A stretch of DNA of 64,000 nt from Mobula hypostoma (GCF_963921235.1 NC_086101.1:14756001-14820000); one strand, 5' to 3'. Positions 26,898-62,164 are shown, counted from the first letter of the stretch. Translations and numbers: made by a program. The notes: generated by a model from the letters alone, not told the origin.

Positions 26898-29800
26898 CTA
26901 GCGGAAGTTAGAGAAGTCAATGTTCATGCCATCAGGTTGGAGGCTACCCAGACGGAATATAAGGTGTTGTTCCTCCAACCTGAGTGTGGCTTCATCTTTA
27001 CAGTAGAGGAGGCCGTGGATAGACATGTCAGAATGGGAATGGGATGTGGAATTAAAATGTGTGGCCACTGGGAGATCCTGCTTTCTCTGGCGGACAGAGC
27101 GTAGATGTTCAGCAAAGCGGTCTCCCAGTCTGCGTCGGGTCTCACCAATATATAAAAGGCCACATCGGGAGCACCGGACGCAGTATATCACCCCAGTCGA
27201 CTCACAGGTGAAGTGATGCCTCACCTGGAAGGACTGTTTGGGGCCCTGAATGGTGGTAAGGGAGGAAGTGTAAGGGCATGTGTAGCACTTGTTCCGCTTA
27301 CACGGATAAGTGCCAGGAGGGAGATCAGTGGGGAGGGATGGGGGGGACGAATGGACAAGGGAGTTGTGTAGGGAGCGATCCCTGCGGAATGCAGAGAGAG
27401 GAGGGGAGGGAAAGATGTGCTTAGTGGTGGGATCCCGTTGGAGGTGGCGGAAGTTACGGAGAATAATATGTTGGACCCGGAGGCTGGTGGGGTGGTAGGT
27501 GAGGACCAGGGGAACCCTATTCCTAGTGGGGTGGTGGGAGGATGGAGTGAGAGCAGATGTACGTGAAATGGGGGAGATGCGTTTAAGAGCAGAGTTGATA
27601 GTGGAGGAAGGGAAGCCCCTTTCTTTAAAAAATGAAGACATCTCCCTCGTCCTAGAATGAAAAGCCTCATCCTGAGAGCAGATGCGGCGGAGACGGAGGA
27701 ATTGCGAGAAGGGGATGGCGTTTTTGCAAGAGACAGGGTGAGAAGAGGAATAGTCCAGATAGCTGTGAGAGTCTGTAGGCTTATAGTAGACATCAGTGGA
27801 TAAGCTGTCTCCAGAGACAGAGACAGAAAGATCTAGAAAGGGGAGGGAGGTGTCGGAAATGGACCAGGTAAACTTGAGGGCAGGGTGAAAGTTGGAGGCA
27901 AAGTTAATAAAGTCAACGAGTTCTGCATGCGTGCAGGAAGCAGCACCAATGCAGTCGTCGATGTAGCGAAGGAAAAGTGGGGGACAGATACCAGAATAGG
28001 CACGGAACATAGATTGTTCCACAAACCCAACAAAAAGGCAGGCATAGCTAGGACCCATACGGGTGCCCATAGCTACACCTTTAGTTTGGAGGAAATGGGA
28101 GGAGCAAAAGGAGAAATTATTAAGAGTAAGGACTAATTCTGCTAGACGGAGCAGAGTGGTGGTAGAGGGGAACTGATTAGGTCTGGAATCCAAAAAGAAG
28201 CGTAGAGCTTTGAGACCTTCCTGATGGGGGATGGAAGTATATAGGGACTGGACATCCATGGTGAAAATAAAGCGGTGGGGGCCAGGGAACTTAAAATCAT
28301 CGAAAAGTTTAAGAGCGTGAGAAGTGTCACGAACATAGGTCGGAAGGGATTGAACAAGGGGTGATAAAACAGTGTCGAGGTATGCAGAAACGAGTTCGGT
28401 GGGGCAGGAGCAAGCTGAGACAATAGGTCGGCCAGGACAGGCAGGTTTGTGGATCTTGGGTAGGAGGTAGAAACGGGAAGTGCGGGGTGTGGGAACTATA
28501 AGGTTGGTAGCAGTGGATGGGAGATCCCCTGAGCGGATAAAGTCGTTGATAGTGTGGGAGACAATGGCCTGGTGCTCCTTAGTGGGGTCACGATCGAGGG
28601 GTAAATAAGAGGAGGTATCCGCGAGTTGTCGCTGTGCCTCGGCAAGGTGTCAGTACGCCAGACTACAACAGCACCCCCTTTATCAGCGGGTTTAATAATA
28701 ATGTTAGGATTAGTGCGGAGGGAGTGGAGAGCAGAGCGTTCCGAAGGAGTGAGGTTGGAATGGGGACAAGGTGCGGTGAAGTCGAGACGGTTGATGTCCC
28801 GTCGGCAGTTGGCAATAAAGAGATCCAGAGCAGGCAGAAGACCAGAGCGGGGTGTCCATGAAGAAGAGAAGGGTTGAAGACGGGAGAAGGGGTCATCGGT
28901 GGGGGTGGAAGAGTCCTTGCCGAAGAAGTAGGCTCGGAGACGGAGACGGCGGAAGAAAAGTTCCGCATCGTGGCGAACACGGAACTCGCTGAGGTGTGGG
29001 CGAAGGGGGACAAACGTGAGGCCCTTACTGAGAACAGAGCGTTCTGCCTCCGACAGTTGAAGGTCGGAGGGGATGGTAAAGACCCGGCACGGATGAGAGC
29101 TGGGATCAGAGGAGGGAGGGGGGAGGCTGGGGGTGTCAATGGAGAGGGGAGGGTTGGGGTGAGAGGAAGATGGAGCCTCTGAGGGCCCAGGAGCTGACGG
29201 TGGGATCTGAGGAAGACGGGGCTGCGGAATGGTGGTGGGGGAAGGGGAGACGGGAGTCACAACAGCAGCACATAAAGACCCGGCCTGGTGTTCAAGGCTG
29301 GAGTTGCAGTTGGTGGTTGCGTAATCACTTCGAATGTGTCCATGGTCGTTGCTGGAGTCCGGGTTTTGAATATGCCCTGAGGTGTTGGAGCCGCCGAGAT
29401 CAATGGCAGACGCCGCAATTGAAAGTTCATGCCTGCTAGCGTCGGGGCCGGCAGGCTCTGGAGTCCGTAGATGTAAGATCTTGCGATCTTTGCCTAACAT
29501 GACAAAGTCAAAAAAACGGCGATTGCAGGGGTGAATCCGACGGAGGATGAAATAGCAGGTAGGACCATTACAGACGGCGAAGAAAGTGTCCCGAAGGTGT
29601 GGAAGAGTCTGGGATGGGGACACCAAGTACCTCCTCATGGCGGAGAGCGTCGCCTTCAGAGCTTGACGGGAGAAGCGGCGAGAGGCAGAGTCAATAAAAT
29701 GTGAGTACCTGGGATCCTCAGAAGGTCCAAATTGAGAGGCTTGGAAACGAATCCTAAAGCCAACTGGAGTAAGTTGGCGACGGAGGCACGTTCCAAGAAA

Positions 29801-29944
29801 GGATACATGGCTGTGATAGCGAGTTTGAGTCAAAGTGTGGTCGAAAAGTTGAAGAACCAAAGAAATCACAGATGGGGAGCAGTGAGAGATGGTTTCACTG
29901 AACTCCCGTCGAAGAGAGGATCTAAACTTCTTCGGTGTAGGCAT
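26898..29944 (-). CDS. Penelope polyprotein (N-terminal domain, RT, GIY-YIG endonuclease) with one frameshift near 28630
   Basis: Starts MPTPKKFRSSLRR. Motifs IIKPADKGGAVVVW, FTMDVQSLYTSIP, GVAMGTRMGPSYA, RYIDD, VIYCVRCSRCGLLYIGET and LEEQHLIFRLG. Confidence 0.9.
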
Positions 29945-30077
29945 CACCGGAAGAGGCTTCGCAGTAGTGAATTTAAACGCAAACAACAGGAATTCTGCAG
30001 ATGCTGGAAATTCAAGCAACACACATCAAAGTTGCTGGTGAACGCAGCAGGCCAAGCAGCATCTGTAGGAAGAGGCG

Positions 30078-41394: not shown

Positions 41395-42195
41395 AAGGTT
41401 CAAAGGTCGAATTTAATGTCAGAGAAATGTATACAATATACATCCTGAAATGCTGTTTCGTCGCAAACATCCACGAAAACAGAGAAGTGCCCCAAAGAAT
41501 AAACGACAGCTAAACGCGAGAACTACAATGTCCCCCCAGTTCCCTCCTCCCGCGCGTAAGCGACAGGAAACAACAATCCCCCCTCCCTCCACCAGCAAAA
41601 AAAAGCGCATCGGTACCGTCACCGAGCCCAATCATGTGCTAAGCAATAGCAAAGTCACAGACCAAAGTTACCCCAAAGGCTTCGCATTTCAACCGACATT
41701 CGACAACCACAGGTTCTCTCTCTCCCTGGCAAGGGAAAGGGAGATATCCCCTATTTTCACAGCGAGCGGGAGACATGACACCCCGCAGGTTTACGAAGTC
41801 AGAAGTCCGTTTCGTAGCTTTTTTCGAGCTGTGTGTCCGAAGATCGCAAAGACCTCGGATATTCAGGCCCACAGCGAAAGATTTTCCGGCCTCCCCGGCG
41901 ACACACGAGTCTCCTGCCATGACACCGACCCTCGATCCGCCCGTCTCCAGAGCCCCGAGATCTTAGGCTTCCGAACGTGAACAGGAATCTCAAGTCAAAC
42001 CGTTGGTATGTCGAATAACCGCCAGTCGTGGAACCCCGAGAACGGGTCCCATTCCCGCAAAGAACCGAAGTCTGCGTGTAACTCCAGGTCAGGGTCGTCA
42101 AAGAAACCTTGAAAGGGAAAAATAAAGATATTAAAGGTGGAAATAGAGCTGCTTCCGAAGATGCAAGCAAAGTAGTTACCATTAGGCGCCATTAT
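41395..42195 (-). mobile_element. Probable non-autonomous retroposon with (ttgaacct)-type tail
   Basis: Begins atggcgcc..., GC-rich body, ends taaattcgacctttgaaccttt. A similar tail lies near 25320. Confidence 0.45.
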
Positions 42196-42334
42196 CCCTC
42201 CTAAGCTCCTGCTAAATCTTGTGATTTTTGAAAACTGAAAAATCCTGTGCTTTTGATTTTATTTATTAATTGAAGGGTATCATAAAGTACAGTACGTCAA
42301 AGAAATCTTTTTTTTTCATTTCGTAAACTTTTTC

Positions 42335-43085
42335 TCAGCTATCTTCATTACAAATTCTTTGTCTGTAAACACTGTTCAGATTAATTTTGCTTCCAGTTGA
42401 AAGAGTCGTCTTAATCGTCGTTAAATCATCCAAATGTTCCACTTCTAGACTGTTTCTGCATATACGTTTTATAATTCGTAAGACCGAATCCACGTTCACT
42501 GTCAGCACAAGCTTCAAATGCTCCAGCGATGTCAACACGATTTGACATTTCTTCAAATATTTCGTTTCTAAGCATGTAGTTTAATATATCAGTGAATCTC
42601 TTAATTGAACCAAACTTAACTTTCTCGGAAACAACAAATTTGAAATCACAGTATTGCTGCGATATTTTCGAGGCAATGCTTTCGTCTTAGTTTGTAATAG
42701 TAGTTCAGTACTTTTTGTCAGTCGTACTTTTTTTCGATTTCCAAATTCAAAATTGGTTGCATCTGCAATAACAATAGGGTTAAAAGCTTACCATTCTCTT
42801 AAATGATCGTCAGGAAATCTATTATCCAAGTCGTTAGGCACACGTTGAATGAATAGAATAATAGGCTCAGTATCAACGTCATAACTTGAAAGTGCAAGCT
42901 GATCCTCCACTTTGTCAATCCAATAATTGATATCGTCAAGATACTGTGACCGTAACTTAATGACGTCATAGTTTATTAACAATGACCAACTGACTTGCAC
43001 TCTGTGCTCATTGTTACAATTTATAACAGTGGTGTAACTTGAAAGACGGATAATGTAAATACGTTGAAACTCGAAAATATTTCAA
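42335..43085 (-). pseudogene. Degenerate intronless ORF of unknown family (ORF-Y)
   Basis: ORF-track pieces 42788-43000 and 42335-42556 are in the same frame, giving about 250 codons with only two internal stops in AT-rich DNA. No recognisable motif. Confidence 0.5.
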
Positions 43086-44560
43086 AGTACTGTAAAGGTT
43101 CTTGTACATATATCATTTACAAAATTTATGAATAATATTCAATAACATATAATTAATAACAGTGTATAGATAGCTTTCAAAATTATGTTAATACTACATA
43201 ATAGAAAATTCGAGTTGTGCGGCCACAAAGGCTATGTGCGCCGGTGCATTTCAGTTACTGCACGGCCGTGCACCCGCGTAGGTTGGAGGGAACAGTGTCT
43301 TCTGCAGAACTTCCGATCCAGCACGAACCAATCTAAGCTGATAACTTTTTTAAACGTTCTCTATATTCTCGGTAACCCACCTCTCACCAACTCCACTCCA
43401 CTACCACCACTCATACTCCAACCCACCACTCCAATTCTTCACCATCGCTGTGCGAAAAACCTGGGAAAACGCCCTCGGAAACAGCATAGTGGTCGTGCTC
43501 ACTACTCCAGGACTGCCGCTGTTTAAGAAGGAAGCTCGCCAGCAATTAAATGCTCGGTCAGCCTGCGAAGCCCACATTCCTTCAAAACATTTTTAAAAAT
43601 TCTTCAGCTGACTTATACACCAAAGACCCGCATAATGGTGAAATTAAACCTGATTCTGATATAAAGGATGGCTAGAAAATGGTAAAGTCGAACAACCGCA
43701 TTATCACATAAAATTGTAAAGCTGACTGTCCGGTAAACTTTTTCCAATTTTGTCAAGGGCAATAATGCTAAAATTATCCCGCTTTGTGACTATGTTTTAA
43801 TCCGCAAATAGTCCGATTCCCGATTTCATTGACAAATTAAACTGAATGGCATATAATGCTCATTCATGTGACTTCTAGTAGGCAGAGATGAATCACTGTA
43901 TTGTTGGACAAGAATGGAAAGGTGGGGGGCGGGGGGGGGACACTGAGTAAAAGTGTAATACCCGGTAGATAAGAGAAAAGGACTGAGGCGTCATCGATTA
44001 TTTTTGCTTCTTTTAAACATCATAGTTGTATTTGCAATAGTATTTTGAACAATGGCAGCTGAAATTCTGGTTAACCTGAATCTCTCACTACTTTTCAGTT
44101 TAAAACTTTCTCCCAATAATTCTTAATGTATTTCCTTTCTAATGTGCTCCAGTGTCTGACATGTAGCTCCGCCATGGATGACACCAAGTATATTTTAAAT
44201 CTTGAATCTTTGAATGCTCACTCAGAGCGCTTCTCCAATGTATAACACAAATATAGGGAATCTCCTGTTGGTTATCCGATTGATCCTTCTTCTCCCAGAC
44301 ACTAGCATGGGAATCTTCCTTCCTATATTCAGTCGTCGAATTTCTCGCCCCCTTGAATTTTTGTACTCTTTCCTTATCTGTTCAAACCTTGCGTTTCAAT
44401 TCGTTGGCTCGAGCTCATCTGACCAAACTGTGTCAGATTCCTATTGGATATAGCCAGTGTCTCCAACACTTCGTGCCGTAGGTGACTAACTTTGCTCTAT
44501 TCAACTGTGCTTCAAACCAGTCAAACCTGGTCACCCAGACACTAAGCGGAGACAACGGAA

Positions 44561-44869
44561 TTAATTCTGCAAACCTGTCATTGTGCACAATAAGCCAATA
44601 GTCTGAAAAATAGTCTCAGGTTTAACAGACTACGAGCAGAAATGTCTTGCGTCCACGTCTATGGCCCTGATAAAATTATCCCAGAGCAAGAATCTGTTCA
44701 TCAAATCGTTCATAAGATATAAGTTATAGAGCAGCTTCACAAACTGACAGCCTCCATCCCTCCACGCACATGGCAAGGACAACTCCCACTCTCGTTGACC
44801 CATTCGAGTTCGGTGTTTTTTTCCATATTTTTCTTCCTCATGGCCAACAACTCCTCCGTTTTGATCCAT
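44561..44869 (-). pseudogene. ORF-X1, a 102-codon Cys-containing ORF of unknown family (one internal stop)
   Basis: MDQNGG...MGQREWELSLPCAWRDGGCQFVKLLYNL...MNRFLLWD..IRA...FCS*SVKP...LLCTMTGLQN*. A paralog lies at 56088-56395. Confidence 0.6.
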
Positions 44870-44898
44870 GGAAATTTCTGGGGATCACACTACTTTTC

Positions 44899-47800
44899 TA
44901 TTCTCGTGGGTGATCAGCCAGATGTCGTGGTGCACATCGGTACTAATGACATAGCAAGGAAGAGCGAAGAGGTCCTGGAGAGTGAGTATAGAGAGCTTGG
45001 TAGGAAGTTGAAAAGCAGGACCTCGAGGGTGGTAATCTTAGGATTGCTACCAGTGCTACGTTCCAGTGAGGGTAAGAATAAGATGCTCTGGAGGATGAAC
45101 AAGTGGCTGAGGAACAGGTGTAGGGAGCAGGGTTTCAGATTTCAGGATCATTGGGACCTCTGCTGGGGCAGGTGGGACCTGTACAAGAGAGACAGGTTAC
45201 ACTTGAAAAGGGGACCAATATCCTTTCAGGGAGGTTTGTTAGTGCTATTGGGGAGGCATTAAACTAGATTTGCAGGGGGGTGGGAACCAGAGAGCCAGAG
45301 CTGACAGTGGGGCTGGGGTGAAAATAAATGATGTTAAAAGTTCAAGCAAAGCCGCAAATATAAAGGTTGTAAGTGGTGGTAAAAATCTTCTGAGATGTAT
45401 ATATTTCAATGCTAGGAGCATTGCGGGGAAGGCAGACCAGTTGAGGGCGTGGATTGACACGTGGAATTATGACGTTATAGCAATTAGTGAAACTTGGCTA
45501 CAGGAGGAGCAGGACTGGCAGCTTAATATTCCAGGGTTCCGATGTTTCAGATGTGATAGAGGCAGAGGAATGAAGGATGGGGGGCTGCTAGCATTGTTTG
45601 TCAGGGAAAATGTTATAGCAGTGCTCAGGCAGGACAGATTAGAGGGCTTGTCTACAGAGTCCTTATGGATGGAGCTGAGAAACAGGAAAGGTATGGTCAC
45701 ATTAGTGGGGTTGTATTATAGACAATAGTCAGCGAGAATTGGAGGAGCAAATCTGCAGAGAGATAGCAGGCAACTGCAGGAAACATAAAGTTGTGGTGGT
45801 AGGGGGTTTTAATTTTCCACATATTGATTGGGACTCCCATACTGTTAGGGGTCTAGATGGGTTAGAGTTTGTAAAATGTGTTCAGGGAAGTTTTCTAAAT
45901 CAATATATAGAGGTACCAATTAGAGAGCATGCAATATTAGATCTCCTATTAGGAAACGAGTTAGGACAAGTGACGGAAGTGTGTGGAGGGGAGCACTTTG
46001 GTTCCAGTGATCATAGCACCATTAGTTTCAACTTGATCATGGATAAAGATAGTTCTGGTCCTACGGTTGAGGTTCTAAACTGGAAGAAGGCCAAATTTGA
46101 AGAAATGAGAATGGATCTAAAAAGAGTGGATTGGGACAGGTTGTTCTCTGGCAAGGATGTGATCGGTAAGTGGGAAGCCTTCAAAGGAGAATTTTTGAGA
46201 GTACAGATCTTGTATGTTCCTGTGAGAATTAAAGGCAAAGTGAACAGGAATAAGGAGCTTTGGTTCTCAAGGGATATTGCAACTCTGTTAAAGAAGAAGA
46301 GAGAGTTGTATGACATGTATAGGAAACAGGGAGTAAATAAGGTGCTTGAGGAGTATAAGAAGTGCAAGAAAATACTTAAGAAGGAAACCAGCAGGGCTAA
46401 AAGAAGACATGAGGTTACCTTAGCAGTCAAAGTGAAGGATAATCCAAAGAGCTTTTAGAGGTATATTAAGAGTAAAAGGATTGTAAGGGATAAAATTTGT
46501 CCTCTTGAAGATCAGGGTGGTCGGCTATGTGCGGAACCAAAAGAAATGGGGGAGATTTTAAATGGTTTTTTTGCGTCTGTATTTACTAAGGAAACTGGCA
46601 TGAAGTCTATGGAATTAAGAGAAACAAGTAGTGACATCATGGAAACTGTACAGATTGAAAAGGAGGATGTGCTTGCTATCTTGTGGCAAATTAAAGTGGA
46701 TAAATCCCCAGGACCTGACAGGGTATTCCCTCGGACCTTGAAGGAGACTAGTGTTGAAATTGCAGGGCCCTGGCAGATATATTTAAAATGTTGGTGTCTA
46801 CGGGTGAGGTGCTGGAGGATTGGAGAATGGCTCATGTAGTTCCGTTGTTTAAAAAAGGATCGAAAAATAATCCTGGAAATTACAGGCTGGTAAATTTGAC
46901 GTCAGTAGTGGGTAAGTTATTGGAAGGAGTACTAGGAGACAGAATCTACAAGCATTTGGATAGACAGGGATTTATTAGGGGAGAGTCAACATGGCTTTGT
47001 GCGTGGTTGGTCATGTTTGACCAATCTATTGTAGTTTTTCGAGGAGGTTACTAGGAAAGTGGTTAAAGGGAAGGCAGTGGATGTTGTCTACATGGACTTC
47101 AGTAAGGCCTTTGACAAGGTCCCGCATGGGAGGTTAGTTAGGAAAATTCAGTCGCTAGGTATACATGGAAAGGTGGTAAATTGGATTAGACATTGGCTCA
47201 ATGGAAGAAGCCAAAGAGTGGTAGTAGAGGATTGCTTCTCAGAGTGGAGGCCTGTGATTAGTGGTGTGCCACAAGGATCAGTGCTGGGTCCATTGTTATT
47301 TGTCATAAAAATCAATGATCTGGATGATAATGTGGTAAATTGGATCAGCAAATTTGCTGATGATACAAAGATTGGAGGTTTAGTGGACAGTGAAGAAGGT
47401 TTTCAAAGCTTGCAGAAGGATTTGGACCAGCTGGAAAAATGGGCTGAAAAATGGCAGATGGAGTTTAATACAGACAAGTGTGAGGTATTGCCCTTTGGAA
47501 GGACAAACCAAGGTAGAACATACAGGGTAAACGGTAAGGCACTGAGGAGTGCAGTAGAACAGAGGGTTCTGGGAATACAGATACAAAATTCCCTAAAAGT
47601 GGCGTCACAGGTAGACAGCGTCGTAAAGAGAGCTTTTGGTACATTGGCCTTTATTAATCAAAGTATTGAGCTTAAGAGCTGGAGTGTTATGATGAGGTTG
47701 TATAAGGCATTGGTGAGACCGAATCTGGAGTATTGTGTTCAGTTTTGGTCACCAACTTACAGGAAGGATATTAATAAGGTTGAAAGAGTGCAGGGAAGGT

Positions 47801-48273
47801 TTACAAGGATGTTGCCGAGACTTTAGAATCTCAGTTACAGAGCAAGTTTGAATAGGTTAGGATTTTATTCCCTGGAGCGTAGAAGAATGAAGGGAGATTT
47901 GATAGAGGTATATCAAATTATGATGGGTATAGATAGAGTGAATGCAAGCAGGCTTTTTCCACTGAGGCAAGGGGAGAAAAAAACCAGAGGACATGGGTTA
48001 AGGGTGAAGGGGGGAAAGTATAAAGGAAACATTGGGGGGTGGGCTTCTTCACACAGAGAGTGGTGGGAGTGTAGAATGAGCTGCCAGACGAGGTGGTAAA
48101 TGCGTGTTCTTTTTTTTAACATTTGAAAATAAATTGGACAGATACATGGTTGGGAGGTGTATGGAGGGATATGGTCCGTGTGCAGGTCAGTGGGACTAGG
48201 CAGAAAATGGTTCGGCACAGCCAAGAAGGGCCAAAAAGCCTGTTTCTGTTTGTAGTTTTTCTATGGTTTCTAT
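44899..48273 (+). mobile_element. 5'-truncated CR1 (end of ORF1 esterase plus ORF2)
   Basis: VVVHIGTNDI, YFNARSIAGK, YMDFSKAFDKVPH and KFADDTK. Tail tttctatggtttctat. Confidence 0.95.
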
Positions 48274-48599
48274 TGAGTAAATACAGTCCAAAAGGAGCAC
48301 CAACATTTATGAATACATCAAATAATACTGAATAATGTACTAATTGAAATATCACGGACTGTACAACATAGATAAACAAATAATGTAAAAATACTGGGAT
48401 ATTTAAAAATATTATCAGCATATAAAAGAAAAATATCTAAAAACATCTAACTGGGATTGTTAAAAATATCTATAATTTCATAAGAGGTTTTTAACAGCAA
48501 ATAATGAAATATAATGAGGTAGAAATACATAATATTCAGGAAAAACATCATGGTATAAAGTCAGACAAAATCACCAAAAAGAGATTTGGAATATATCAA

Positions 48600-49112
48600 C
48601 CATGTAAACATTTAAACTTGCTATCCAAAAACACATAGGCATAAACATTGAATAGTCATTAGAACAAAGAGCAGAACAATAATAACGTAAGAGATAAAAT
48701 AAGACGAATCCAAGGTTGTACTTTAACATTCATACCCCAATTTAGAACTTTATTCCAAAAGGGTGTATTCTGGAAAACATCATTACCTATGTCAGCATGA
48801 TCTCTAATAATCTTGAATAAATCTTTCCATTGTCTAATAAGAGCTCCATTATGGTTAATAACTTTATTCCACTGTGCAGTAAAATGAGGGGTAGGTGGAA
48901 TAGTATATGTCTTAGTAAGCGCTCCACCGTATCATTGATACTGCCAAAATGGAGAAGGGTGAGCGGACAAAATTTGAAAAGGTGAATAAATGACTGAAGG
49001 TGCTGGATTTGAATGTGTGCATATATGGTATAAGGTAGATGAATAGGCAACACAGTGGCAGATTGGTAGGCGTGATAGTGTAGGCATCACCAATGAAAAT
49101 GAATTCAAATCT
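48600..49112 (-). pseudogene. 3' part of envelope/class-I fusion glycoprotein gene (membrane-proximal ectodomain plus TM anchor)
   Basis: YGGALTKTYTIPPTPHFTAQWNKVINHNGALIRQWKDLFKIIRDH...FWNKVLNWGMNVKVQPWIRLILSLTLLLFCSLF, followed by a CLCLC-like stretch. Frameshifted. Confidence 0.65.
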
Positions 49113-51697
49113 TTAGAAAGTGGTAATATAGGGTCAGAAGGTGTTGAATCATTATGGATAAAGCTACGGATCTGAGGGTAAAAAGAAACTCTGACACGAG
49201 TGGTATACAAACCCAAAAACAGTGGTAAGGAGGTGGCCTACAAATTACAACCAGAGATAGAAATAGAACAATGTTACAATATTCATGGGGGACTTCAATG
49301 CACAGGTAGATTGGGAAAATGAGGTTGGTGCTGGATTCCAGGAGAGTGAGTTTCTAGAATGCCTACAAGGTGCTTCTTTAGCCCTCTAGATGATCAACTA
49401 TTCTGGACTTGGCCTTGTGCAATGAACCAGAATTAATTAGAGATCTGAAAGGTAAAAGAGCCCTGAGGGAAAGTGATTATGATATGATAGCATTCACCCT
49501 GAGATCTAAGAAGGAGAAGCTAAAGTCAGATGTATCAGAATTACATAGGAATAAAGGGAATTACAGAGGCATGAGAGAGGAGTTCGCCAGAGTTGATAGG
49601 AAAAGAACACTGGCCGGGATAACGGCAGAGCAGCAATTGCTGAAATTTCTGGAAGCAATTCGGAAGGTAAAGAATCCGTACATCCCAAAGAGGAAGAAGT
49701 ACCCCAAAGGAAATATGCCACAACCATGGCTAACAAGAAAATTCAAAGCCAACATATAAGCCAAAGAGAGGACTTATAATAAAGGAAACATTAGTGAGAA
49801 GTTAGATCGGGAAGCTTTTAAAAATCAACTGACAGCTACTAAAAAAGTAATTACGAAGGTAAAGATGGAATACAAAAGTCAGCTAGTTAATAATATTATA
49901 GAGGAACTAAATGTTTCTTCGGAGACATAAAGTGTAAAAGAGAAGGGAGTGTGGATATCCGAACGCTGGAATGTGATGCCAGAGAGGTAGTAATGGGAAC
50001 AAACGAAATGGGGGACGACCTGAATAAGTAATTTCCGTCAGTCTTCCCTGTGGAAGACAATAGCTGTATTGTGGAAGTCCCAGGCATCATGGGGCATGAC
50101 GTGTGTGAAGCTACCATAACTAGAGAGAAGATTCTTGGGTAACTGAAAGGTCTAAAGGTAGGTAGGACATCCGGACCAGATGGTGTACACCCCAGAGTTC
50201 TGATAGAGGTGGCTTAAGAGATTGCGAAGGCGTTGGTAAAGACTTTTCAAGAATCACTAGATTCTGTAATGGTTCGGGACGACAGGAAGATTACAAATGT
50301 CACACCACTCTTCAAAGAGGGAGAAAGGCAGAAGAAAGGAAACTGTAGGCCAGTTAGTCTGACCTCCGTGATTGGCAAGATGTTGGAGCCGATTATTAAG
50401 GATTAGGTCTCAGGGTACTTGGAGGCACATGATAAAAACAGGCCGTATTCAGCATAGTTTCCTCAGGGGAAAATCTTGCTTGCCAAAACTGTTGGAATTC
50501 TTTGAAGAAATAACAAGTAGAATAGATAAAGGAGAATCGGTTGATGTTATGTACTTGACACATCAAAAGGTCTTTCACAAGGTGCCACATGTGGGGCTGC
50601 TTAGCAAGCTACGAGCCCATGGTATTGTAGGACAGATTCTAGCATGGGTAAAGAAGTAGCTGATTGGCATGAGGCAAACAGTGGGAATAAGGGGAGTCTT
50701 TTTCAGGCTGTCTGCCGTTGACTAGTGGTTTTCTACAAGAGTCTATGTTCGAACCCATTATTTTTACTTTATATGCCAAAGATTTGAAGGATTGAATTAA
50801 TGGCTTTGTTGCAAAGTTTTCAGACGATATCGAGCGAGGTGGAGGGGCAGGTAGTTTTGTGGAAGTAGAGGGGCTACAGAAAGTCTTAGATTAGGAGAAT
50901 GGGCAAAGAAATGGCAAATAAAATAAAGTGTCGGGAGGTGTATGGTCATACACTTTGGTAGAAGAAATGAAAGGTTGAACTATTTTCTCCATTTCTAAAT
51001 GGAGAAAAGAATACAAAACTTTGAGGTGCGAGGAGACTTGGGAGCCCTTGTACTGGGTTCCCTAAAGGTTAATTCGCAGGTTGAGTCCGTGGTGAGGAAG
51101 GCAAATGCGATGTTAACATTTATTTCAAGAGGATTAGAATATAAAAGCAAGGATGTTATATTGAGACTTTATAAAGCACTGCTGAGGCCTCACTTGGAGT
51201 ATTGTCAGCAGTTTTTGGCCCCTTATCTTAGAAAGCATATGCTGAATCTGGAGAGCGTTCAAAGGAGGTTGACGAAAATGATTGCAGGATTGAATGGCTT
51301 ATCATATGAAGAGCGCCTGATGGCTCTGTGCCTGTATTCACTGGAGTTCAGAAGAATGAGTGGTGACCTCATTGAAGCCTTTCAAATGGTGAAAGGCCTT
51401 GATTGAGTGGGTGTAGAGAGTCTGTTTCCTATGATGGGAGAGTCTAAGAGCAGAGAACACTGCCTCAGAATAGATTGGCGCCCTTTTGCAACGGATACGA
51501 GGAGGAATTTCTTAATGTATTTTAAGTCTAAGTGTGTATTTAAGGCAGCGATTGATAGATTCTTAATGAGTCAGGGCTTGAAGGGATATGGGGAGAAGGT
51601 AGTAGATTGAGGTTGAGAGGAAAATTGGATCAGCAATGATGAAATGGCGGAGCAGAGTCTTTGACTCCGCTCCTATGTCGTATGGTCTTATGGTCTT
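49113..51697 (+). mobile_element. Degenerate 5'-truncated CR1 inserted in the env-like gene
   Basis: APE/RT remnants and tail tatggtcttatggtctt. ATCT is duplicated at 49109-49112 and 51698-51701. Confidence 0.9.
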
Positions 51698-53315
51698 ATC
51701 TACATTTAGTTGAATAGATGGATTGAGTAACAGCCCAGCTAAGGCTAAGTCCCTCAAAACACTGGAAACCGCCATATTAGAGTTATTCATATTGCAAATG
51801 AAAGATCTATTCTTTCAATGTGTGCTTGAAATAGCAATGTAAGAAGTATCATTCACCAAAGCAAATTTGAGAAATGTGTTCTGCTGACAGGCAAAATAGA
51901 TAGAGGAAAACTATTATGAGAAACATAGCCACAATTTGTTAACCCTTCATAACTAAGTCCTCAGACGGAACAGCATTCTGCTTTCTTTAATGACAGTAAG
52001 TCACTTTTACTGCCTTCATAGATTATTGATATTTAATAGCATAAGTAGGTGAACTGGGTAAGTGAAATCCAAACTCCTTCTTGATATGTTCCAACACTGT
52101 ATATTCGGTACGTTCGGTTTAAATTGTACCATGTTAACTCCATTACAGAAAGCAATCTAAAGGTATTGGTTGTACATACCGCATCTTTAGCGGGTTGAAT
52201 ACTTTCATTATTAATTCTGTCGATAATTCGATTTGTCATACCTCTCAAAGGTTCCACTTCCATAGGGCATTTCCTAAACTATATTTGTTTGTTGCTTACC
52301 TACAGTGCTAACTCCTCCCATATCCAGTTAATCCTAATTTGCAATTTCTTTCATCTTTTGCTTCAGAGAATCCAACTGAGCGTTTCCCTCTAAAATATCT
52401 ACTGTATATGCCGTTGAAACGCCAGTCGCGTAACCTAAAACCATAATTCCTGTAAACCCTCTCCTTCGATTCTGTCGTGTTTCAAATTCTAAATGGGTAA
52501 ACTGTTCAATTAATAAATGTTGTAAAATCTTTTGGAGGCCTATTCCACGCCATCTAGGAATTTGGAATGCTGTCAAACTTATCAAACCTGCACATATCGA
52601 TATACTAGATGTGATATGTACAACCAATACCTTTAGGTTACTTTCTATAATGGAGTTAACATGCAGCTACAATATTCCGTTTTTCTTCTCATTCAAATCC
52701 TCCTCCCTTTGTATATGTCCGAACCTCATCACACAAGAACGTATTAGTAACAGTTGGAACTTCAGTGGTCGTATCAATTGTTAAATATACCGTGAGGTAA
52801 CGTGCATGCCCCATGACCAACCGGAATTGATTTGTCTAGGGGACAGGCTAACTGATTATCCCGTTTCTGATTTCTGTCCACGTCAACACTACCATTACAT
52901 TCACAATATTGTATTTGAGTTATAAGCTTTTATTCCTGAACCACGACCTAAATCACATACTTCCACTGTTATACTGGTACTCCCATCTTTTCCCCAATTT
53001 ACAGTTACTTGACCACGAGTATCAACAAATATCGGTCTCATTTTCTTTACAATATTTCGTCTTAGTCCTTCATGAATTCGTACTACTACCTCACCTTCCG
53101 CATCCACACACTCTACTATTACTATAGCAGCTGATGGAATTCAAGTAGACTTTGCTGTGAATGTTGTGAATAGTCGATCTGCAGACAACCTGATCTTTGT
53201 GTCCAGATGAATGTAAAATTGGCCAGTAAAACACGTCATTGAAGAACAAGTGACCTTCAATAAAGCCTTCGACCATTATGAGACCAATCATCAGTAGTAT
53301 TCCAGCACCAATCAT
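51698..53315 (-). pseudogene. 5' part of envelope/class-I fusion glycoprotein gene (signal peptide, SU, furin site, fusion peptide, heptad, Cys-containing ectodomain)
   Basis: MIGAGILLMIGLIMVEG; RQNRRR|GFTGIMVLGYATGVSTAYTVDILEGNAQLDSLKQKMKEI (furin site at 52460-52477); MTNRIIDRINNE...AVCT; FALVNDTSYIAISSTH*KNRSFICN; CFEG...W...KC. Multiple frameshifts and stops. Confidence 0.7.
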
Positions 53316-53689
53316 CTCCGAATACTTAGAAAGAAAAACAAGAGAAGTCGTTGTACTAACCTAAATATCTAATACTGTCTCTAAATTCAGCTCTTCTATT
53401 ACCCGCTTTATTTCCAGAACTAGTGATGAACGCAGTTTCTTATCTGCTTCTCTCTTCCATTCTCTCTGCTTTGTCTTGCCTTAGGCGATAGCAGCAATGG
53501 CCTCGGTTTAACCACCCACCACCCCGCCTTCTTGATGCTGAGTGTGAAGTGAGCTACTCTTAAACTCCTGGTGCAAACAGGAAGTGGTTGCCCACCGGTT
53601 GATGGGTCAAATTGCAAGGATGGCAACCGTTGCTGACAAGGGAAGTTAGCGGACTGCATAAAAGCTAACGAAAGGGAAACTGTTCTCTT

Positions 53690-55175
53690 ACAAAGGTGAC
53701 TGGAGAGTTGGATGATTGGGATTTTGTTTTTAATTCCAACAAAAGGAAACTCAAAAATGCCAAAGGAAGGAAAAGATGAAATATGAGGGCAAACTGCTCA
53801 GTACTATAAAGCGGGATTCTAAACGTTTTTTTTAGTAATATAAAGAGTGAAAGGGAGGTGAGAATTGACATCGGACCTCTGGAAAATGGTGCTGGTGAGA
53901 GAGTAATGGAGGGTACAAAGAAATAGCGGATGAACTTAATAAGGATTTCGCAGCAATCGTCACTGTGGAAGACACTAGTAGTGTGCCAGAGGTCCGTAAG
54001 TGTCAGGGAGCAGGAGAAAGTGACATTGGTATTACAAAGGACAGGTTTTAAGGTAGATAAGCCACCTGGACCAGATGAACTACAACTCAGAGTTTTGAAC
54101 GACGTTGCTGAAGGGATATCAGATGCATTGGTTATGATCTTTTAAGAATTGCCTGATTCTGGCTTGGTTCCGGTGGACTGGAAAATCACAGAAGTCACTC
54201 CACTCTTCAAGAAAGGAGGAAGGCACAAGAAAGGAAATTATAGGCCAGTTAACCTAAACTCAGTGGTTGGGAAAGTGTTGCAGTCTATTATTAAGGATGA
54301 GGTTTCCGGATACTTGGAGACTAATGATCAATTAAGTCAAAATAAGCATTGTTCCTGTAAAGGGAAAATTTGCCTGACATATCTGTTAGAGTTCGTCGAG
54401 GAAGTAACAAGCAGTGGGGGACAAAGGATAGGCAGTGGATGTCATTTACTTGTAATTTCAAAAGCGATTTGATAAGGTAGCAGACATGAGGCTGCTTAGC
54501 AAGATAAAATCTTATAGCATTACAGGGTAGATGCTGACATGGAATGGCTGACAGGCAGGAGGCAGCGAGTGGGAATACAAGGGGACTTTTCTGGTTGCTG
54601 CCAGTGACTAGTGATGTCCCTCAGGGGTCAATATTGGGACCGCTACTTTTCTCACCATTTGTCAATGATTTGTATAATGGAATTGATGGCTTTGTGGCAA
54701 AACTTGCAGATGATACGAAGTTAGGTGGGTGGCTAGGTAGTGCTGAGAAAGCAATGCGATTGCAGAAGGACGTGAACAAATTGGAAGAATGGGCAAAAAG
54801 TGACAGATGGCATACAGTGCTGGGAAATGCATTTTGGTAAAAGGAACAAAAGTGTAGGGAATTGCATAAATGAGGAAAAAATAACAGTATCTGAGGTGCA
54901 ATTGGACTTGGGGGTCCTCGTGCAAGACTTTCAGAAGGTTAATTTAAAGGCTGAGTCGGTCGTGAAGCAGGCAAATGCAATGATGGCATTCATTTCAAAG
55001 GGAATAGAATATAAAAATAATCAGTTTCCTGATTGGTCAGGGCATCAAAGATTATGGCGAGAAGGCAGGTGTATGCGGTTGAGTGGGATCCGGAATCAGC
55101 CATAATGGAATGGCGGAGCATTCTCAATGTGCTGAATAGTCTAATTCTGTTCCTATGTCTTATGGTCTTATTATG
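53690..55175 (+). mobile_element. Degenerate CR1 ORF2 with internal deletions
   Basis: KPPGPD, NYRPVNL, VPQGSILGP and KLADDTK. Tail tatgtcttatggtctta. Confidence 0.85.
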
Positions 55176-55179
55176 TTAA

Positions 55180-55640
55180 AGATAAGGGTGGGGAGACCCG
55201 AGGGAGGCGACAGGCAAGTAAGGAGATAAGGTGATAGAGGGAAATGGGAATGGGGAATGGTGCAGGGGGGTGCATTAACGGAAGTTCGAGAAATCGATGT
55301 TCATGCCGTCAGGTTGGAGGTTATCCAGATGGAATATAATGTATTGCTCCACAAACCGGAATTTGGCCTAATTGCAACCATAGAGGAGGCCATGGACTGA
55401 CATGTCAGGAAGGGAATGCTAAATTGAATTAAAATGGGAGACCACTTGGAGATCCCGCCTTTTTTGGTTGATGGAACATAGATGCTCGGCAAAGCGGTCT
55501 CCCGTCTGCGTCGGGTTTCACCGATATACTGGTCTTCAGAGCGGGAGCACCAGATACAATCGATGCACAAGTGACGTGTCGCCTCATCAGGAAGGACTCC
55601 TACCTGCCCTGCTGAGTTCCTCCTACATTTAGTGTATGTT
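55180..55640 (-). mobile_element. Old Penelope GIY-YIG fragment
   Basis: IYCIWCSR..DQYIGETRRR-like text. Confidence 0.75.
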
Positions 55641-56087
55641 GCATATTGTCCTTCTTTTCAATGGAACAGACTAAAACCCATTACTTATATCCAGTACTGT
55701 GAGACACTTTGCTACAGTGTTCTTACAGTGGAGGTAGATGAAGGGGTAACTTTTTCAATTTGTAATCTATGGTGAATTTCTAACATCATCGGATTTATGA
55801 ACGGCAATATGGGTGAATTATTTGTAGATGCTATTTCTCGCAAAACTTTCAGTGTTAATAAACTCTAAATAACTTTCTCTACACCTGCCTCTATTTGATT
55901 TGCAAATTCATATTCCGTCTGGAGTTTTGGATGAACGCCTTGTATACATACTTCTCAACGCATACTGCCATAGTTGAGTTTATGTTTAGCAAATCCTGCC
56001 TGGCAATCTAAAAAATTGTCTGGCTTTTCAGTCTTTTGTCATATCTTCTTTCTTCCCCCTCACACCCCAACAGTATATATCCTGAGA

Positions 56088-56395
56088 TTATTTCTGCAAG
56101 CCTGTCATTGTGCACAATAAGCAGTTCATTTGAGAATGGTCTCAGGGTTTCGCAGATCGTTAGCAGAAACTGCCTGTGCCCACATTCATTGCTCTGATTA
56201 ATTTATCGCAGAGCAAGAATCACTTCATCAAACAGTTCACAAAATGGAGGTTACTGAGCAGCTTCACAAAATGGCAGCCTCCATTCCTTCAAGAGCATGG
56301 CAAAAACAAAGACATCTAATTTGTCTGCTTCAACTGCCCCTGGCCCATTCGAATTCAATGTTTTCTTCCATGTTTAATTGTTTCGTGGCAAACAA
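56088..56395 (-). pseudogene. ORF-X2, diverged paralog of ORF-X1
   Basis: HGRKH*IRMGQ...LPCS*RNGGCHFVKLLSNL..LMK*FLLCDKLIRA...LLCTMTGLQK*. Same terminal stop position as X1. Confidence 0.6.
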
Positions 56396-57070: not shown

Positions 57071-58232
57071 TAAAGTCCCACATAGGAGATTAGTGGGCAA
57101 ATTTAGTGTACATGGTATTGGGGCAGAGTACTGACATGGGTTGAAAATTGGCTGGCTGACAGAAAACAAAGAGTAGCGATTAATGGGTCTCTTTCGGAAT
57201 GGCAGGCGGTGACCAGTGGGGTAAGGGTTCAGTGCTGGGACCGCAGCTGTTTACAATGTATATTAATGATTTAGATGAGGGAATTAAAAGTAACATTAGC
57301 AAATTTGCCGATGACACAAAGCTGGGTGGCAGTGTGAAATGTGAGGAGGATGTTATGAGAATGCAGGGTGATTTGGACAGGCTGGGTGAGTGGGCGGCCA
57401 TATGTGGATAAATATGAGGTTATCCACTTTGGTGGTAAGAATAGGAAGGCAGATTATTATCTAAATGGAGTCAAATTAGGAAAATGGGAAGTACAACGAG
57501 ATCTAGGTGATCTTGCAGATCAGTCACTGAAAGCAAGCATGCAAGTACAGCAGGCTGTGAAGAAAGCTAATGGCATGCTGGCCTTCACAACAAGGGGAAT
57601 TGAGTACAAGAGCAAAGAGGTCCTTCTGCAGCTGTACAGGGCCCTGGTGAGAACACACCTGGAGTACTGTGTGCAGTTTTGGTCTCCAAATTTGAGGAAG
57701 GGCATTCTTGCTATTGAGGGAGTGCAGCGGAACTTCACAAGGTTAATTCCCGGGATGGCGGGACTGTCATATGTCGAAAGATTGGAGCGACTGGACGTGT
57801 GTACTCTGGAATTTAGAAGGCTGAGAGGGGATCTTATTGAAACATATAAGATTATTAAGGGATTGGACACGCTGGAGGCAGGAAGCATGTTCCCGCTGAT
57901 GGGTGAGTCCCGAACCAGAGGCCACGGTTTAAGAATAAGGGGTAGGCCATTTAGAACGGAGTTGAGGAAAAACTTTTTCACCCAGCGAGTGGTGGATGTA
58001 TGGAATGATCTAGCCCAGAGGGCTGTGGAGGCCAAGTCTCTGGATGCTTTCAAGAAAGAGATGGATAGAGCTCTTACAGATAGCGGAATCAAAGGTTATG
58101 GGGATAAGGCAGGAACTGGATACTGATAGTGGATGATCAGCCATGATCACAGTGAATGGCGGTGCTGGCTCGAAGGGCCGAATGGCCTACTCCTGCACCT
58201 ATTGTCTATTGTCTATTGTCTATTGTCTATTG
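57071..58232 (+). mobile_element. 5'-truncated CR1 inserted in the Gypsy LTR
   Basis: KFADDTK, HLEYCVQFWSP and (ctattgt)n tail. Confidence 0.92.
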
Positions 58233-59258
58233 ACTCTGCTGTTTCCCGATTCTGCTTTTTGATTTCCCTGGATGTTTTGATCTCTGCCTGAACTCTGACG
58301 CTGACTTTGTTCGTACCTCGGGATTTGCTACTGAATTAACATCATCATGTGCGCAGTACTGGGTATGCAATTGGCTCTCTGCTCCAGCTCCCTGACAGTA
58401 CAATCTGGCCAGAATGGATCCAGCAGATCCCGGTCGTCTGAGAGCTGTCCTGGAACAACAAGGGGTGATGCTGGCGAGACACCAGAACCAGCTGGACTCC
58501 GAGTTCAGGGCAGTGGAGTCGCTTTCTGCCAATGTAGCCGATCTTGTGGCCCAAACTTAGTCACTCCAGCTGTCCTAGAGCGCCCATCAACATTCTCCAA
58601 CTGCATCTTCTGCCCTGCCCTCAGCGTTCTTGTTCACTCGTCCCGTCCAAGAGCCCCATCGGCCTTCTCCAGAAAAGTACTCAGGTGAGCCCGGTACCTG
58701 CCGCTCTTTTCTTTCTCAGTGCACCCTCATTTTTGAACTACCACCAACAACATTTCCGACTGATCGAGCCAAGGTACGCTACGTCATCACCGAACTGTCC
58801 GATCGGGTGAGAGAATGGGGAACAGCCGTCTGGGAGGCAGGCTCCCCTTTCTGCAGTAGTTTTCAGTTATTTTCTGAGGAGATGAGAAAGGTGTTTGATC
58901 GCTCCAAACATGGGAGAAAGGCTGCCCGTGAAATGCTGCACATGCACCAGGGACACAATCTGTGTCAGCTTACGCCATAGAGATCCGGACCCCAGCCACA
59001 TCCAGCAGCTGGAACTCGGAGGCACAGTACGGCACCTTCCTGAACGGCCTCTCCGAATACATCAAAGATGAGCTGTTCACCCAGGACCTTCCTGCCACCT
59101 TTGAAGCCCTGGTGGATTTGGCCATCCGTACTGATATTCGCCTTCAGCAGCGCCGCAGAGAGAGGGGCTCCAGAGGGTCCCTGGGGGCACTGGGTGAGTT
59201 CCAAGCTCCTCGTCAGTCCACATTGCCGTGCTGTTTGCCTCCATCTACAATTCCCGTT

Positions 59259-59983
59259 GGTTCCAAGGTTGTCAAGCCGAGGAGTGGGAGTGAAGACAAG
59301 CTCCCACTACCTAAAAGTGCTCCTCATGGCATGCGCCTCAAATAGCCTCTGACAATCAAGGCCAACTCCTGGCCTTCTCGTGAGGCTTAGCCTCTAAGCC
59401 TGGCGGAACTGTTTCTACTGACAGGAGAAGGGGCGAAGGTGGGTCCTGGTGCCTTAAAACCAGTGCTTCGGGTAGATGGAGCTCGTCAGCCTGGGAAGGC
59501 AGTCCATCTAAGAGAGGGAAAACTCTGATTGCGGCCAAACCCACTCATGGGAAAAGCTTCGGGAGTAAACCCTGAGGACAAATCCGGAGCTGGAGTCCCT
59601 GAGGCAGTGTTCGTTCCCTTCAACTTCGTTCTGGCAACTCCTGCGATGACACTGGTGCCAAGCTGTATCGGCCCTTGTCCTTCCCTTGGACAACATCAGT
59701 AGCGTAGAGAGGGGAGACATGCTGCATGGGCAACTGCCGGTCTTCCATACAACCTTGCCCAGGCCTGCGCCCTGGAGAGGACGCTCCAGCGTCACCTCAC
59801 CGCGACGGCACAAAACGGAAAGCAGCACTGGAGGACAGCGCCTTCAAGTGCAGTCGCTGCAGCCGAGACTGTCACTCCGGTGTGGGCCTTTACAGCCACA
59901 ACAGACGCTGATCTACCAACACAGACTGAAGCAAGACTTTCCTGGCGCAGATCCATGGTCTCGCGAGACTAACGGATGCCACC
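59259..59983 (+). mobile_element. Internally deleted non-autonomous RTE element
   Basis: 12-bp TSD ACAATTCCCGTT at 59247-59258 and 59984-59995. The 5'UTR-like part is fused to an RTE C-terminal FKCSRCSRDCHSGVGLYSH motif and a ccatggtctcgcgagac...ggatgcc 3' end. Confidence 0.85.
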
Positions 59984-62164
59984 ACAATTCCCGTTCCAGA
60001 GCCCGAGGCGATACATATTGACGGTACCCGCCTGACGCCGACTGAAAGACAAAGGATAATCAGCACCCGCTCCTGTCTGTAATGTGGCCAAACAGACCAC
60101 TTCATCTCCAGCTGCCCAGTAAAAGCCAGCGCTCACCAGTAGGACGAGGTGAACTAGTGAGCGTGACCCCTGCCCGGCCCTCCTCGACACCACTCACTCT
60201 CATACCTGCTTCTCTGGAGTGGAGCGTCCAACGCCGAGCAGTCTCCGCCTTGGTTGATTCTGGTGCGGAGGAGTGTTTTATCAATTCCGGCTTGGCTGCC
60301 CAGTGGGGACTACCCACGTCTGCTCTCCAGTCACCATTATTGGATAACCCCTTGAACGGTCAGAGACTGGCTAACATCACCCATGTCACGGCCCTAGTGA
60401 GTCTCAGTTTATCCGGCAACCATCATGAACAGTTAACCCTTTATGTTATTGACTCTCCTCAAGCTCCCATTGTCCTGGGCCATCGCTGATTAGTCAGACA
60501 CAACCCCCACATTGACTGGTTCAGTCGCAAGATTGTAGGCTGGAGCCCATTCCGTCACTCCCACTGCCTCCGCCATGCTCAGATTCCCTTGTCCCCAAGC
60601 CCAGATCCCCCCGAGGAATTTCCCGACTTTAGTGCCATCCCTCCTGAATACATGGACCTCAAGGCTGTGTTCAGCAAGTCCCGGGCCACTTCCCTGCCGC
60701 CTCGCCGTCCATCTGATTGCGCCATTGACCTCTTGCTTGGCACATCTCCCCTAAGGGACCGCCTGTATTCCCTGTCCGTACCTGAAATGAAGCCATGAAT
60801 AAGTACATTCAAGAGTCTCTGGCTGCAGGCATCATCCGGTCGTCTTCCTCCCCTGCTGGTGCCGGTTTTTTCTTTGTTGAAAGCAAGGGCGGCTCCTTGC
60901 GTCCATGCATTGATTACCAGGGACTGAATGAAGTCACTGTTAAGGACCGTTACCTTCTTCTGCTCATGACCTCGGCATTTGAACTACTACAAGGAGCCTC
61001 CGTTTTCACCAAACTTGATCTCCGTAACGCTTACCATCTTATCCGCATCCGCGAAGGGGTCGAGTGGAAGACAGCCTTCAACACCACCTCAGGCCATTGC
61101 GAGTATTTAGTCATGCCGCTCGGTCTCGCCAATGCCTCCGCCTTCTTCAAAGCCCTGGTAAATGACGTTCTCAGGGACATGCTGAACGAATTTGTTTTTG
61201 TGTATCTCGACGACATTTTGATTTTTTTTTCTAAGTCCCTTGCTGAACACACAAGTCACGTCCGCAGAGCTCTCCAGCGCCGTCTGGAGAACCAGCTCTT
61301 TGTGAAGGCTGAGAATATGAGAGTTTAATCACAATACTGTCTCCTTCCTGGGGTATGTAATTTCAGGCGGCCCCATTCAGATGAAACAACAGAAGGTCAA
61401 GGTGGTGGTCGAATGGCCGCAACCCTCGACTCGTCGGGAGTTGCAACGCTTCTTGGGCTTTGCTAACTTCTATCGCCGCTTCATCAGAAATTACAGTACA
61501 CTGGCGGCACCACTCGCTGCTCTTACCGCATCGGCTGTCAGATTCTCCTGGGCACCTGCTGCTGAAAAAGCATTCACCTCTGCCCCCATCCTGATTCATC
61601 CCGACACCGACCGGCAGTTCATTGTGGAGGTGGATGCGTCTGACATTGGCGTAGGAGCTGTTCTCTCGCGGCGCTTGGCCAAGAATGAGAAGGTACACCC
61701 CTGCGCCTTCTTCTCTCACCGCCTCACTCCCACGGAGCGGAATTACGATGTCGGAAACCGGGAGCTGCTGGCTGTGAAGCTAGCTCTGGAGGAGTGGAGG
61801 CATTGGCTGGAGGGAGCAAATGTGCCATTCTTAGTCTGGACTGATGACAAGAATCCGGAATATATCTGTACGGTCAAGCGTCTCAACTCCAGTCAAGCTC
61901 GTTGGTCTCTGTTTTTCTCAAGATTCAATTTTACTTTGTCCTTCAACTCCGGTTCCAAGAATACCATCTCCCGAAGGGTTCCCTCCTCTGAGACCCCTGA
62001 TGTCCCCTAATGTCATCCTCCCTGCTCACTGTCTCGTGGGTGCAGCGCAATGGGACATTGAAACCATGGTGCAGCTGCTCAACAGAGTGAGGCAGCCCCT
62101 CGTCAATGCCCCACTAACTGTGTTATGTTCCCAGCTCTGTACACACACAAGTATTGCAGTGGGG

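Follow-up and report, generated by a model that had tools for sequence, protein, structure and literature searches.

A decayed, LINE-interrupted provirus of Mobula hypostoma and a sister copy with an open env gene, likely co-opted by rays

We analysed a stretch of 64,000 nucleotides (nt) from the genome of Mobula hypostoma (GCF_963921235.1 NC_086101.1:14756001-14820000; G000:C12:14756001-14820000 in our numbering), here called the window, in which an earlier note had read positions 42,335 to 56,395 as a virus-like minus-strand gene cluster, with env surrounded by the accessory open reading frames (ORFs) ORF-X1, ORF-X2, ORF-Y and a small hydrophobic ORF. An accessory-gene cluster is unsupported by our data: the locus holds an endogenous retrovirus (ERV) of known kind, and a good candidate for a domesticated env lies elsewhere in the genome. 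Positions 44213-56394 (minus strand) are a single decayed provirus interrupted by three CR1 long interspersed elements (LINEs) and a Penelope piece. The reading that we hold with good confidence is that this LINE-cut provirus lies beside an unrelated hAT transposon and has a sister on contig C2 whose unbroken env was likely co-opted by rays.

The window provirus was compared with sister copies in 20 kb fetched around 10 env loci of the same genome. Its non-LINE minus-strand stretches are AT-rich and filled with stops, and none of 18 frames of the window pieces matched a Pfam family. The degenerate, AT-rich env recognised by the earlier note is confirmed by two pieces (53324-51701 and 48901-48627) that match the intact family Env colinearly (tblastn, E to 1e-68). 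The CR1 and Penelope inserts sit about where they had been placed, and the pieces separated by LINEs adjoin one another in other genomic copies. The env region as such is dispersed in copies about 70% identical, with at least 77 matches (40 of the 92 candidates scored). From the complex endogenous virus proposed earlier, the retroviral remnant with colinear copies stands and the accessory proteins do not; the suggested 3' half of a provirus or tandem units give way to one provirus with both long terminal repeats (LTRs) and internal deletions in gag and pol.

In the repeat search of the window the cores of ORF-X1 (44619-44782) and ORF-X2 (56146-56309) came out as direct repeats, 75% identical, and the two supposed accessory ORFs are copies of one non-coding LTR. 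This X repeat is the LTR of the retrovirus family, because it lies 3' of env and its 3' region in 8 of the 10 env loci, flanks the internal genes as a pair in four of them (C45, C50, C2a and C2b), has TG..CA termini and a TATA box about 110 nt upstream of AATAAA, is bordered by target-site duplications and occurs as solo copies. Its length is 807-825 nt in five of the six copies with both ends. Duplications of 4 bp around solo LTRs agree in all four letters in two cases and in at least three letters in all six with both ends, while 7 of 13 loci have no detectable end; both LTRs of the window copy are truncated and the 3' end is lost. The X repeat is not tied to env, being widespread as solo LTRs (13 of 17 loci are without internal viral sequence). 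Further retroviral landmarks that had been suggested for search are found in part: a purine tract precedes the 3' LTR, and in C50 and C2b a tract starting with TGG lies 5 nt past the 5' LTR, for which a pattern search found no matching tRNA gene. The virus would have integrated via its integrase, making the 4-bp duplications, and the family would then have spread, with LTR-LTR recombination leaving many solo LTRs and neutral decay following.

The family layout is LTR-gag-pol-env-LTR. Better-kept copies of pol show the order reverse transcriptase (RT), tether, RNase H and integrase, followed by env, with RVT_1, RT_RNaseH_2 and RNase_H above the Pfam cutoff and Integrase_H2C2 and rve below it. 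The window retains the start of RT and the end of pol only: gag and most of pol were lost by internal deletions, one of which, spanning gag and protease, joined the RT fragment to the 5' LTR. No RT had been recognised here before, yet 56002-55656 matches the RT N-terminus of a Pol protein (P0040; E 7e-10), and the region is 71-75% identical to the RT region of C45, C50 and C2b; on its own the piece reaches only E 0.06 in Pfam. It also accounts for the coding-like text noted at about 55700-56080, whereas 43300-44205 is essentially single-copy and lies outside the provirus. The 5' part of env has 78% nucleotide identity to the open copy and 19 frameshifting indels. The window copy is inert, a fossil that records integration, internal deletion and the insertion of LINEs.

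It is highly unlikely that the virus was complex and carried genuine accessory ORFs next to env, as snakehead retrovirus (SnRV) does, even when the idea is narrowed to the 3' region. The idea is favoured by the SnRV-like RT described below, SnRV itself carrying ORF1-3 plus a 205-codon 3'ORF after env (according to an excerpt of PMC12193657), and by the ORF-X frame, where mismatches are lowest at codon position 2. This codon bias is significant but pseudo-replicated against one reference, and it was superseded by column counts over 22 LTR copies, which give 8-22 majority-stop columns in each of the six frames and variability that is flat by frame. The pol frame has no majority stop until about 50 nt upstream of the env ATG in all 11 aligned copies; since pol runs up to env, no gap is left there for an accessory gene. 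From the env stop to the LTR there are only about 285 nt, 43% T, with majority stops in three frames (13/13 copies aligned), and the ATG-initiated ORFs of individual copies in this 3' untranslated region (UTR) span 16-73 codons at inconsistent positions. No SnRV-type accessory ORF (ORF1-3, 3'ORF) was found in the family copies. One 3' frame of about 50 codons, free of majority stops after an ATG column, does speak against a virus without accessory genes, and a tiny ORF is possible. As to the small hydrophobic ORF, the one at 53091-53360 represents the env signal region, being in frame with env in other copies, and the T-rich 3' UTR is likely what had been described under that name; a conserved small ORF was not seen between env and LTR.

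ORF-Y, as its sister copies show, is a piece of a hAT transposon outside the provirus. It is a high-copy repeat (3563 first-look candidates, 40 scored), and two of four pieces from sister copies, which are dispersed, match the C-terminal dimerisation domain of hAT transposases (PF05699; E 8.8e-5 and 5.4e-4); ORF-Y of the window is too decayed to match by itself. Its membership in the cluster is contradicted by its distribution, as it was never found alongside env: env and LTR are absent from all 14 ORF-Y loci, and ORF-Y from all 10 env loci. The window itself is ordinary debris, and it shows that a semblance of accessory genes can come from LTRs, T-rich UTRs and a transposon.

The sister provirus on contig C2 is of a different kind. 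Among at least 79 family Env matches in this genome, it holds the single full-length, stop-free env, of 733 codons (G000:C2:126459313-126461514; L052:313-2514), in a provirus with fragmented pol and LTRs about 18% divergent. Its product has a signal region, an R-R-R-R furin site, a fusion peptide, a transmembrane (TM) helix near residue 690 and eight N-glycosylation motifs; neither a CXXC nor a CX6CC motif is present. Proteins 93% identical to it are annotated in Hypanus sabinus (XP_059838750) and Hemitrygon akajei (XP_072911529). Their differences from it number 54 and 51 in 733 residues, most of them within the first 283, and all 15 cysteines are kept among the three. Both proteins start with MTCSSATLW. 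A first exon for MTCSSATL(W) is encoded at L051:848-873, ahead of a GT donor and 9.4 kb upstream of the C2 env, in a high-copy LTR-like repeat that is different from the provirus LTR, contains a TATA box and gave 744 first-look candidates. Joined to an AG acceptor 10 nt 5' of the env ATG, this donor keeps the reading frame. Because these 93% identical proteins share the same first exon, the open C2 env is likely a co-opted F-type env of stingrays.

The C2 env sequence was also present in sequencing runs of seven organisms, and its single-copy 3' flank, at about 94-99%, in DNA-type runs of three. None of the runs with C2 env is listed as RNA; one, X9, only guessed to be RNA, covers parts of env at a depth of 3-5 and was not used as evidence. 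Compared with organism D, the C2 env has 13 synonymous and 17 non-synonymous differences, no stops and no indels (30 of the 36 differences listed). Neutral drift by 6% would bring about 5.5 stops and 5.4 frameshifts, and because the probability of staying open is then about 2e-5 (0.004 by stops alone), survival of the ORF looks strongly non-neutral. A shortened, near-identical second env copy is seen in Hypanus (P0003, 319 aa), apparently on the same chromosome.

It is quite improbable, in our view, that the C2 env is not domesticated and stayed open by chance, through slow shark-like mutation or as a recent insertion. The literature does assume slow mutation rates for chondrichthyans, the ratio dN/dS is just mildly below 1, and the second Hypanus copy is truncated. 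Against this, the provirus carrying the gene has broken pol and LTRs 0.18 apart, sister envs are ridden with stops, the ORF is open in three species whose proteins are 4-7% apart, the captured first exon is common to C2, Hypanus and Hemitrygon, and substitutions accumulate half as fast in the TM half (21-23/450) as in the surface half (28-33/283). It should be noted that co-option, too, has points to its detriment: the 9.4-kb splice is deduced from RefSeq proteins plus GT/AG sites and not from reads, no contig bridges env and the unique flank, so that orthology means co-occurrence and a shared first exon, and dN/dS is only 0.46-0.56 (P 0.04-0.09; surface part, 30 of 36 differences, one species).

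Divergence of LTR pairs (Kimura two-parameter) is 0.28 in the window (288 nt), 0.14 in both C45 and C50, and 0.18 over 193 nt in the C2 provirus, where a second piece of 124 nt gives 0.39 and is perhaps misaligned. Because these values exceed the synonymous distance between C2 env and organism D (about 0.07-0.08), the insertions probably have two to four times the age of the split from organism D. Absolute dating was rejected, the assumed rates (2.2e-10 and 0.5e-9) being about 2-fold apart; it would give roughly 140-640 My.

How the gene may work can be proposed as follows. The LTR-like repeat, about 1.6 kb upstream of the C2 provirus, would supply the TATA box and a 9-codon first exon; a transcript started in this captured repeat would be spliced over 9.4 kb to the viral env acceptor, giving a 745-aa protein with signal, furin site, fusion peptide and TM anchor, which would be kept by purifying selection and, once furin has cleaved it, be displayed at the surface in the manner of class I fusion proteins. 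We tentatively favour, short of even chances, the role of a fusion-competent surface protein in host tissue, and rank it slightly above blocking of entry, since neither the cleavage site nor the fusion peptide nor the anchor has been lost. Possible, with somewhat lower probability, is that the C2 env is kept as an antiviral receptor blocker against related viruses rather than as a fusogen. Its surface part evolves faster, many related env families populate this genome, and endogenous Env proteins are known to restrict viruses, as do Fv4 and enJSRV; a pure decoy, however, would not need the furin site, the fusion peptide, all the cysteines and the TM anchor that this protein retains.

With the fusion role in mind, it may be asked whether stingrays domesticated the Env of an undescribed lineage, combining an SnRV-like polymerase with a paramyxovirus-F-like fusogen, and whether the captured foreign LTR drives syncytin-like cell fusion. 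Such a protein would be the first F-class syncytin and the first in a cartilaginous fish, a proposal that we regard as doubtful. Stingrays are live-bearing, with uterine villi, as are many cartilaginous fishes, and percomORF of spiny-rayed fishes is a co-opted retroviral env. Like syncytin genes, the C2 env is a single open env in a decayed provirus, is conserved across species and bears the hallmarks of fusion. It differs from them in that its Env is of the F type and not of the orthoretroviral TM type, its host is cartilaginous, its first exon comes from a different LTR-like repeat and it is known by sequence alone. Open, conserved and apparently spliced, this stingray env is a candidate for asking if cartilaginous fishes domesticated retroviral fusogens as mammals did.

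We found no report of a co-opted env in rays in the literature, but the survey of 177 co-option events (PMID 32667990) may already include the gene; that vertebrate env/gag survey is known to us as cited in an excerpt of PMC8922424.

The polymerase of the family, which has a dual RNase H, appears by eye to be closest to that of SnRV. In the 54-residue RT block from LDISNG to NGL, identities counted by eye are 36/54 with SnRV and 22/54 with each of Loki-Lch and simian foamy virus. The nearest Pol proteins are coelacanth and frog 'NYNRIN-like' polyproteins (44-47% identical, other matches 28-39%), and a tree by a quick method grouped the family with the coelacanth and frog elements with a value of 90 in the Shimodaira-Hasegawa-like approximate likelihood-ratio test (SH-aLRT); it took 34 of 45 matches, the 11 without the anchor motif being left out, and had no labelled SnRV, Loki or foamy rows. 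The family Env, in turn, is related to the F proteins of paramyxo- and pneumoviruses, as far as profile and fold-model matches can tell. Its profile matches F0 of human parainfluenza virus 3 (hPIV3; E 1.3e-5), and its model matches F of respiratory syncytial virus and hPIV3 in Foldseek at E about 1e-9. Class I fusogen matches in the ESM Atlas stay below 0.9 and serve as a lead only, a single-sequence PDB search gave no match, and a profile search of a 5.8-billion set returned P0001 only. Both affinities have their weak sides: the one to SnRV is a count by eye on one block of 54 residues, with a tree that lacks an SnRV reference, and the Env model has a predicted local distance difference test score of 54.7, leaves residues 1-207 unmodelled and gives TM-scores of 0.2-0.4.

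SnRV and the ERV clade Huo appear closest to the family, through the likeness of the RT block to SnRV counted by eye and through the retroviral layout. The family departs from SnRV in its Env tail (about 24 aa versus 136 aa in SnRV) and has no room for a 205-codon 3'ORF of the SnRV type. Clade Huo ERVs are described as widespread (excerpt of PMC6001957), and SnRV-like ERVs have already been reported from elephant shark as CmiERV lineage I (excerpt of PMC4422223).

F-like Env proteins are known from Loki (excerpt of PMC7947760) and from foamy viruses, whose Env has a paramyxo/pneumo F core (excerpt of PMC11468914). A lokiretrovirus was our first guess from the F-type Env, dropped once RT motifs were compared, and we consider it very unlikely that the family extends Loki to cartilaginous fishes. 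The family has in common with Loki an F-like Env, a dual RNase H and an Integrase_H2C2-type signal, and a Loki-like Env (P0034) matches weakly (E 1.5e-5). In Env the likeness covers the signal peptide, R-X-K/R-R site, fusion peptide, coiled coil, TM helix and similarity to F0. The supplement of PMC7947760 reports Loki in none of six chondrichthyan genomes, which would make the family an extension. On the other hand, the family RT reads WT.LPQGFH and LDISNGFWS as in SnRV, where Loki has (T/N)RCPFGY; this reading of the motifs as non-Loki was made by eye against Dataset S2 of PMC7947760 and agrees with the 36 versus 22 identities given above. The family Env is also longer (733 aa versus about 570 aa for P0034), with about 200 extra N-terminal residues. 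Foamy viruses share with the family the F-type core of Env, and their Pol is the best PDB match to the family RT (E 1.6e-19); they differ in the RT block, in the long leader peptide, not seen in the family, and in rank, foamy Env being 39th in the viral fold search. Literature pairing an F-like Env with an SnRV-like RT was not found, and SnRV's own Env was not compared with F. With an F-type Env next to an RT of neither Loki-like nor foamy-like appearance, the family would widen the spread of F-like envelopes among retroviruses.

Relatives of the family Env were found across sharks, rays and a frog. Full-length distant ones with 24-26% identity are P0010 (Chiloscyllium punctatum, 739 aa) and P0012 (Pelodytes ibericus, 723 aa), which may be young proviruses or further co-options. 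In the genome studied here, G000:C21:139536812-139537750 and other matches of 40-47% represent several further, more distant env families of this type, one with a long open stretch. In Pristis pectinata, P0014, a gene model for a TRP channel, contains at its N-terminus 70 residues of this Env family (60% identity), either an exonised remnant or an artefact of annotation. A form of env without 837 nt, in frame (equivalent to L052:942-1780), occurs in contigs of three other organisms, and many copies in this genome, including C45, break near the same site; possibly a deleted subfamily spread. The features of the window provirus and its surroundings are collected in Table 1.

Table 1. Parts of the window provirus, its inserts and the adjoining DNA (positions counted from the first letter of the window)
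Feature	Position	Strand	Basis or remark
5' LTR, first ~310 nt only ('ORF-X2')	56084..56394	-	Starts with TG as solo LTRs do; internal deletion fuses LTR to pol
pol fragment: protease-RT linker and RT N-terminus to LDISNGF motif	55656..56083	-	Frameshifted, with stops
Penelope-type insert, secondary	55180..55640		Repeat family; GIY-YIG-like text at 55301-55657; coordinates from the earlier note
CR1 LINE insert, secondary	53690..55175	+	CR1 RT-like ORFs; coordinates from the earlier note
pol 3' end (integrase C-terminal extension), reaching the env splice acceptor	53330..53594	-	Copy alignment
env 5' part: signal region, surface part, furin site, fusion peptide, heptad	51698..53324	-	Family comparison
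CR1 LINE insert within env, secondary	49113..51697	+	Coordinates from the earlier note; env adjacent in other copies
env 3' part: heptad B, transmembrane helix, short tail; broken	48564..48940	-	Family comparison
3' untranslated region, T-rich (43% T)	48274..48563	-	No ORF shown conserved
CR1 LINE insert between 3' UTR and polypurine tract, secondary	44899..48273	+	48274 abuts 44897 elsewhere
Internal-region end, purine-rich tract immediately before LTR	44850..44897	-	Copy comparison
3' LTR ('ORF-X1'), U3 to just beyond TATA region; R-U5 lost	44213..44849	-	Copy comparison
Near single-copy host DNA outside provirus	43300..44205		Elsewhere only ~40-60 nt matches
hAT DNA-transposon 3' fragment ('ORF-Y')	42229..43297	-	PF05699 in sister copies; unrelated to provirus

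Some other parts of the window deserve mention. A decayed Sushi-like Gypsy element with gag, protease, RT and RNase H, unrelated to the provirus, occupies 58200-62050 (plus strand), and its RT served as outgroup. At 41500-42200 there is a GC-richer repeat, like an insert inside the C45 provirus and in L026, and at 26898-30025 (minus strand) a Penelope element with a long ORF and near-identical repeats 3.5 kb apart. An ORF resembling an immunoglobulin V-type exon at 464-922 (minus strand) suggests that a host immune-receptor gene is nearby.

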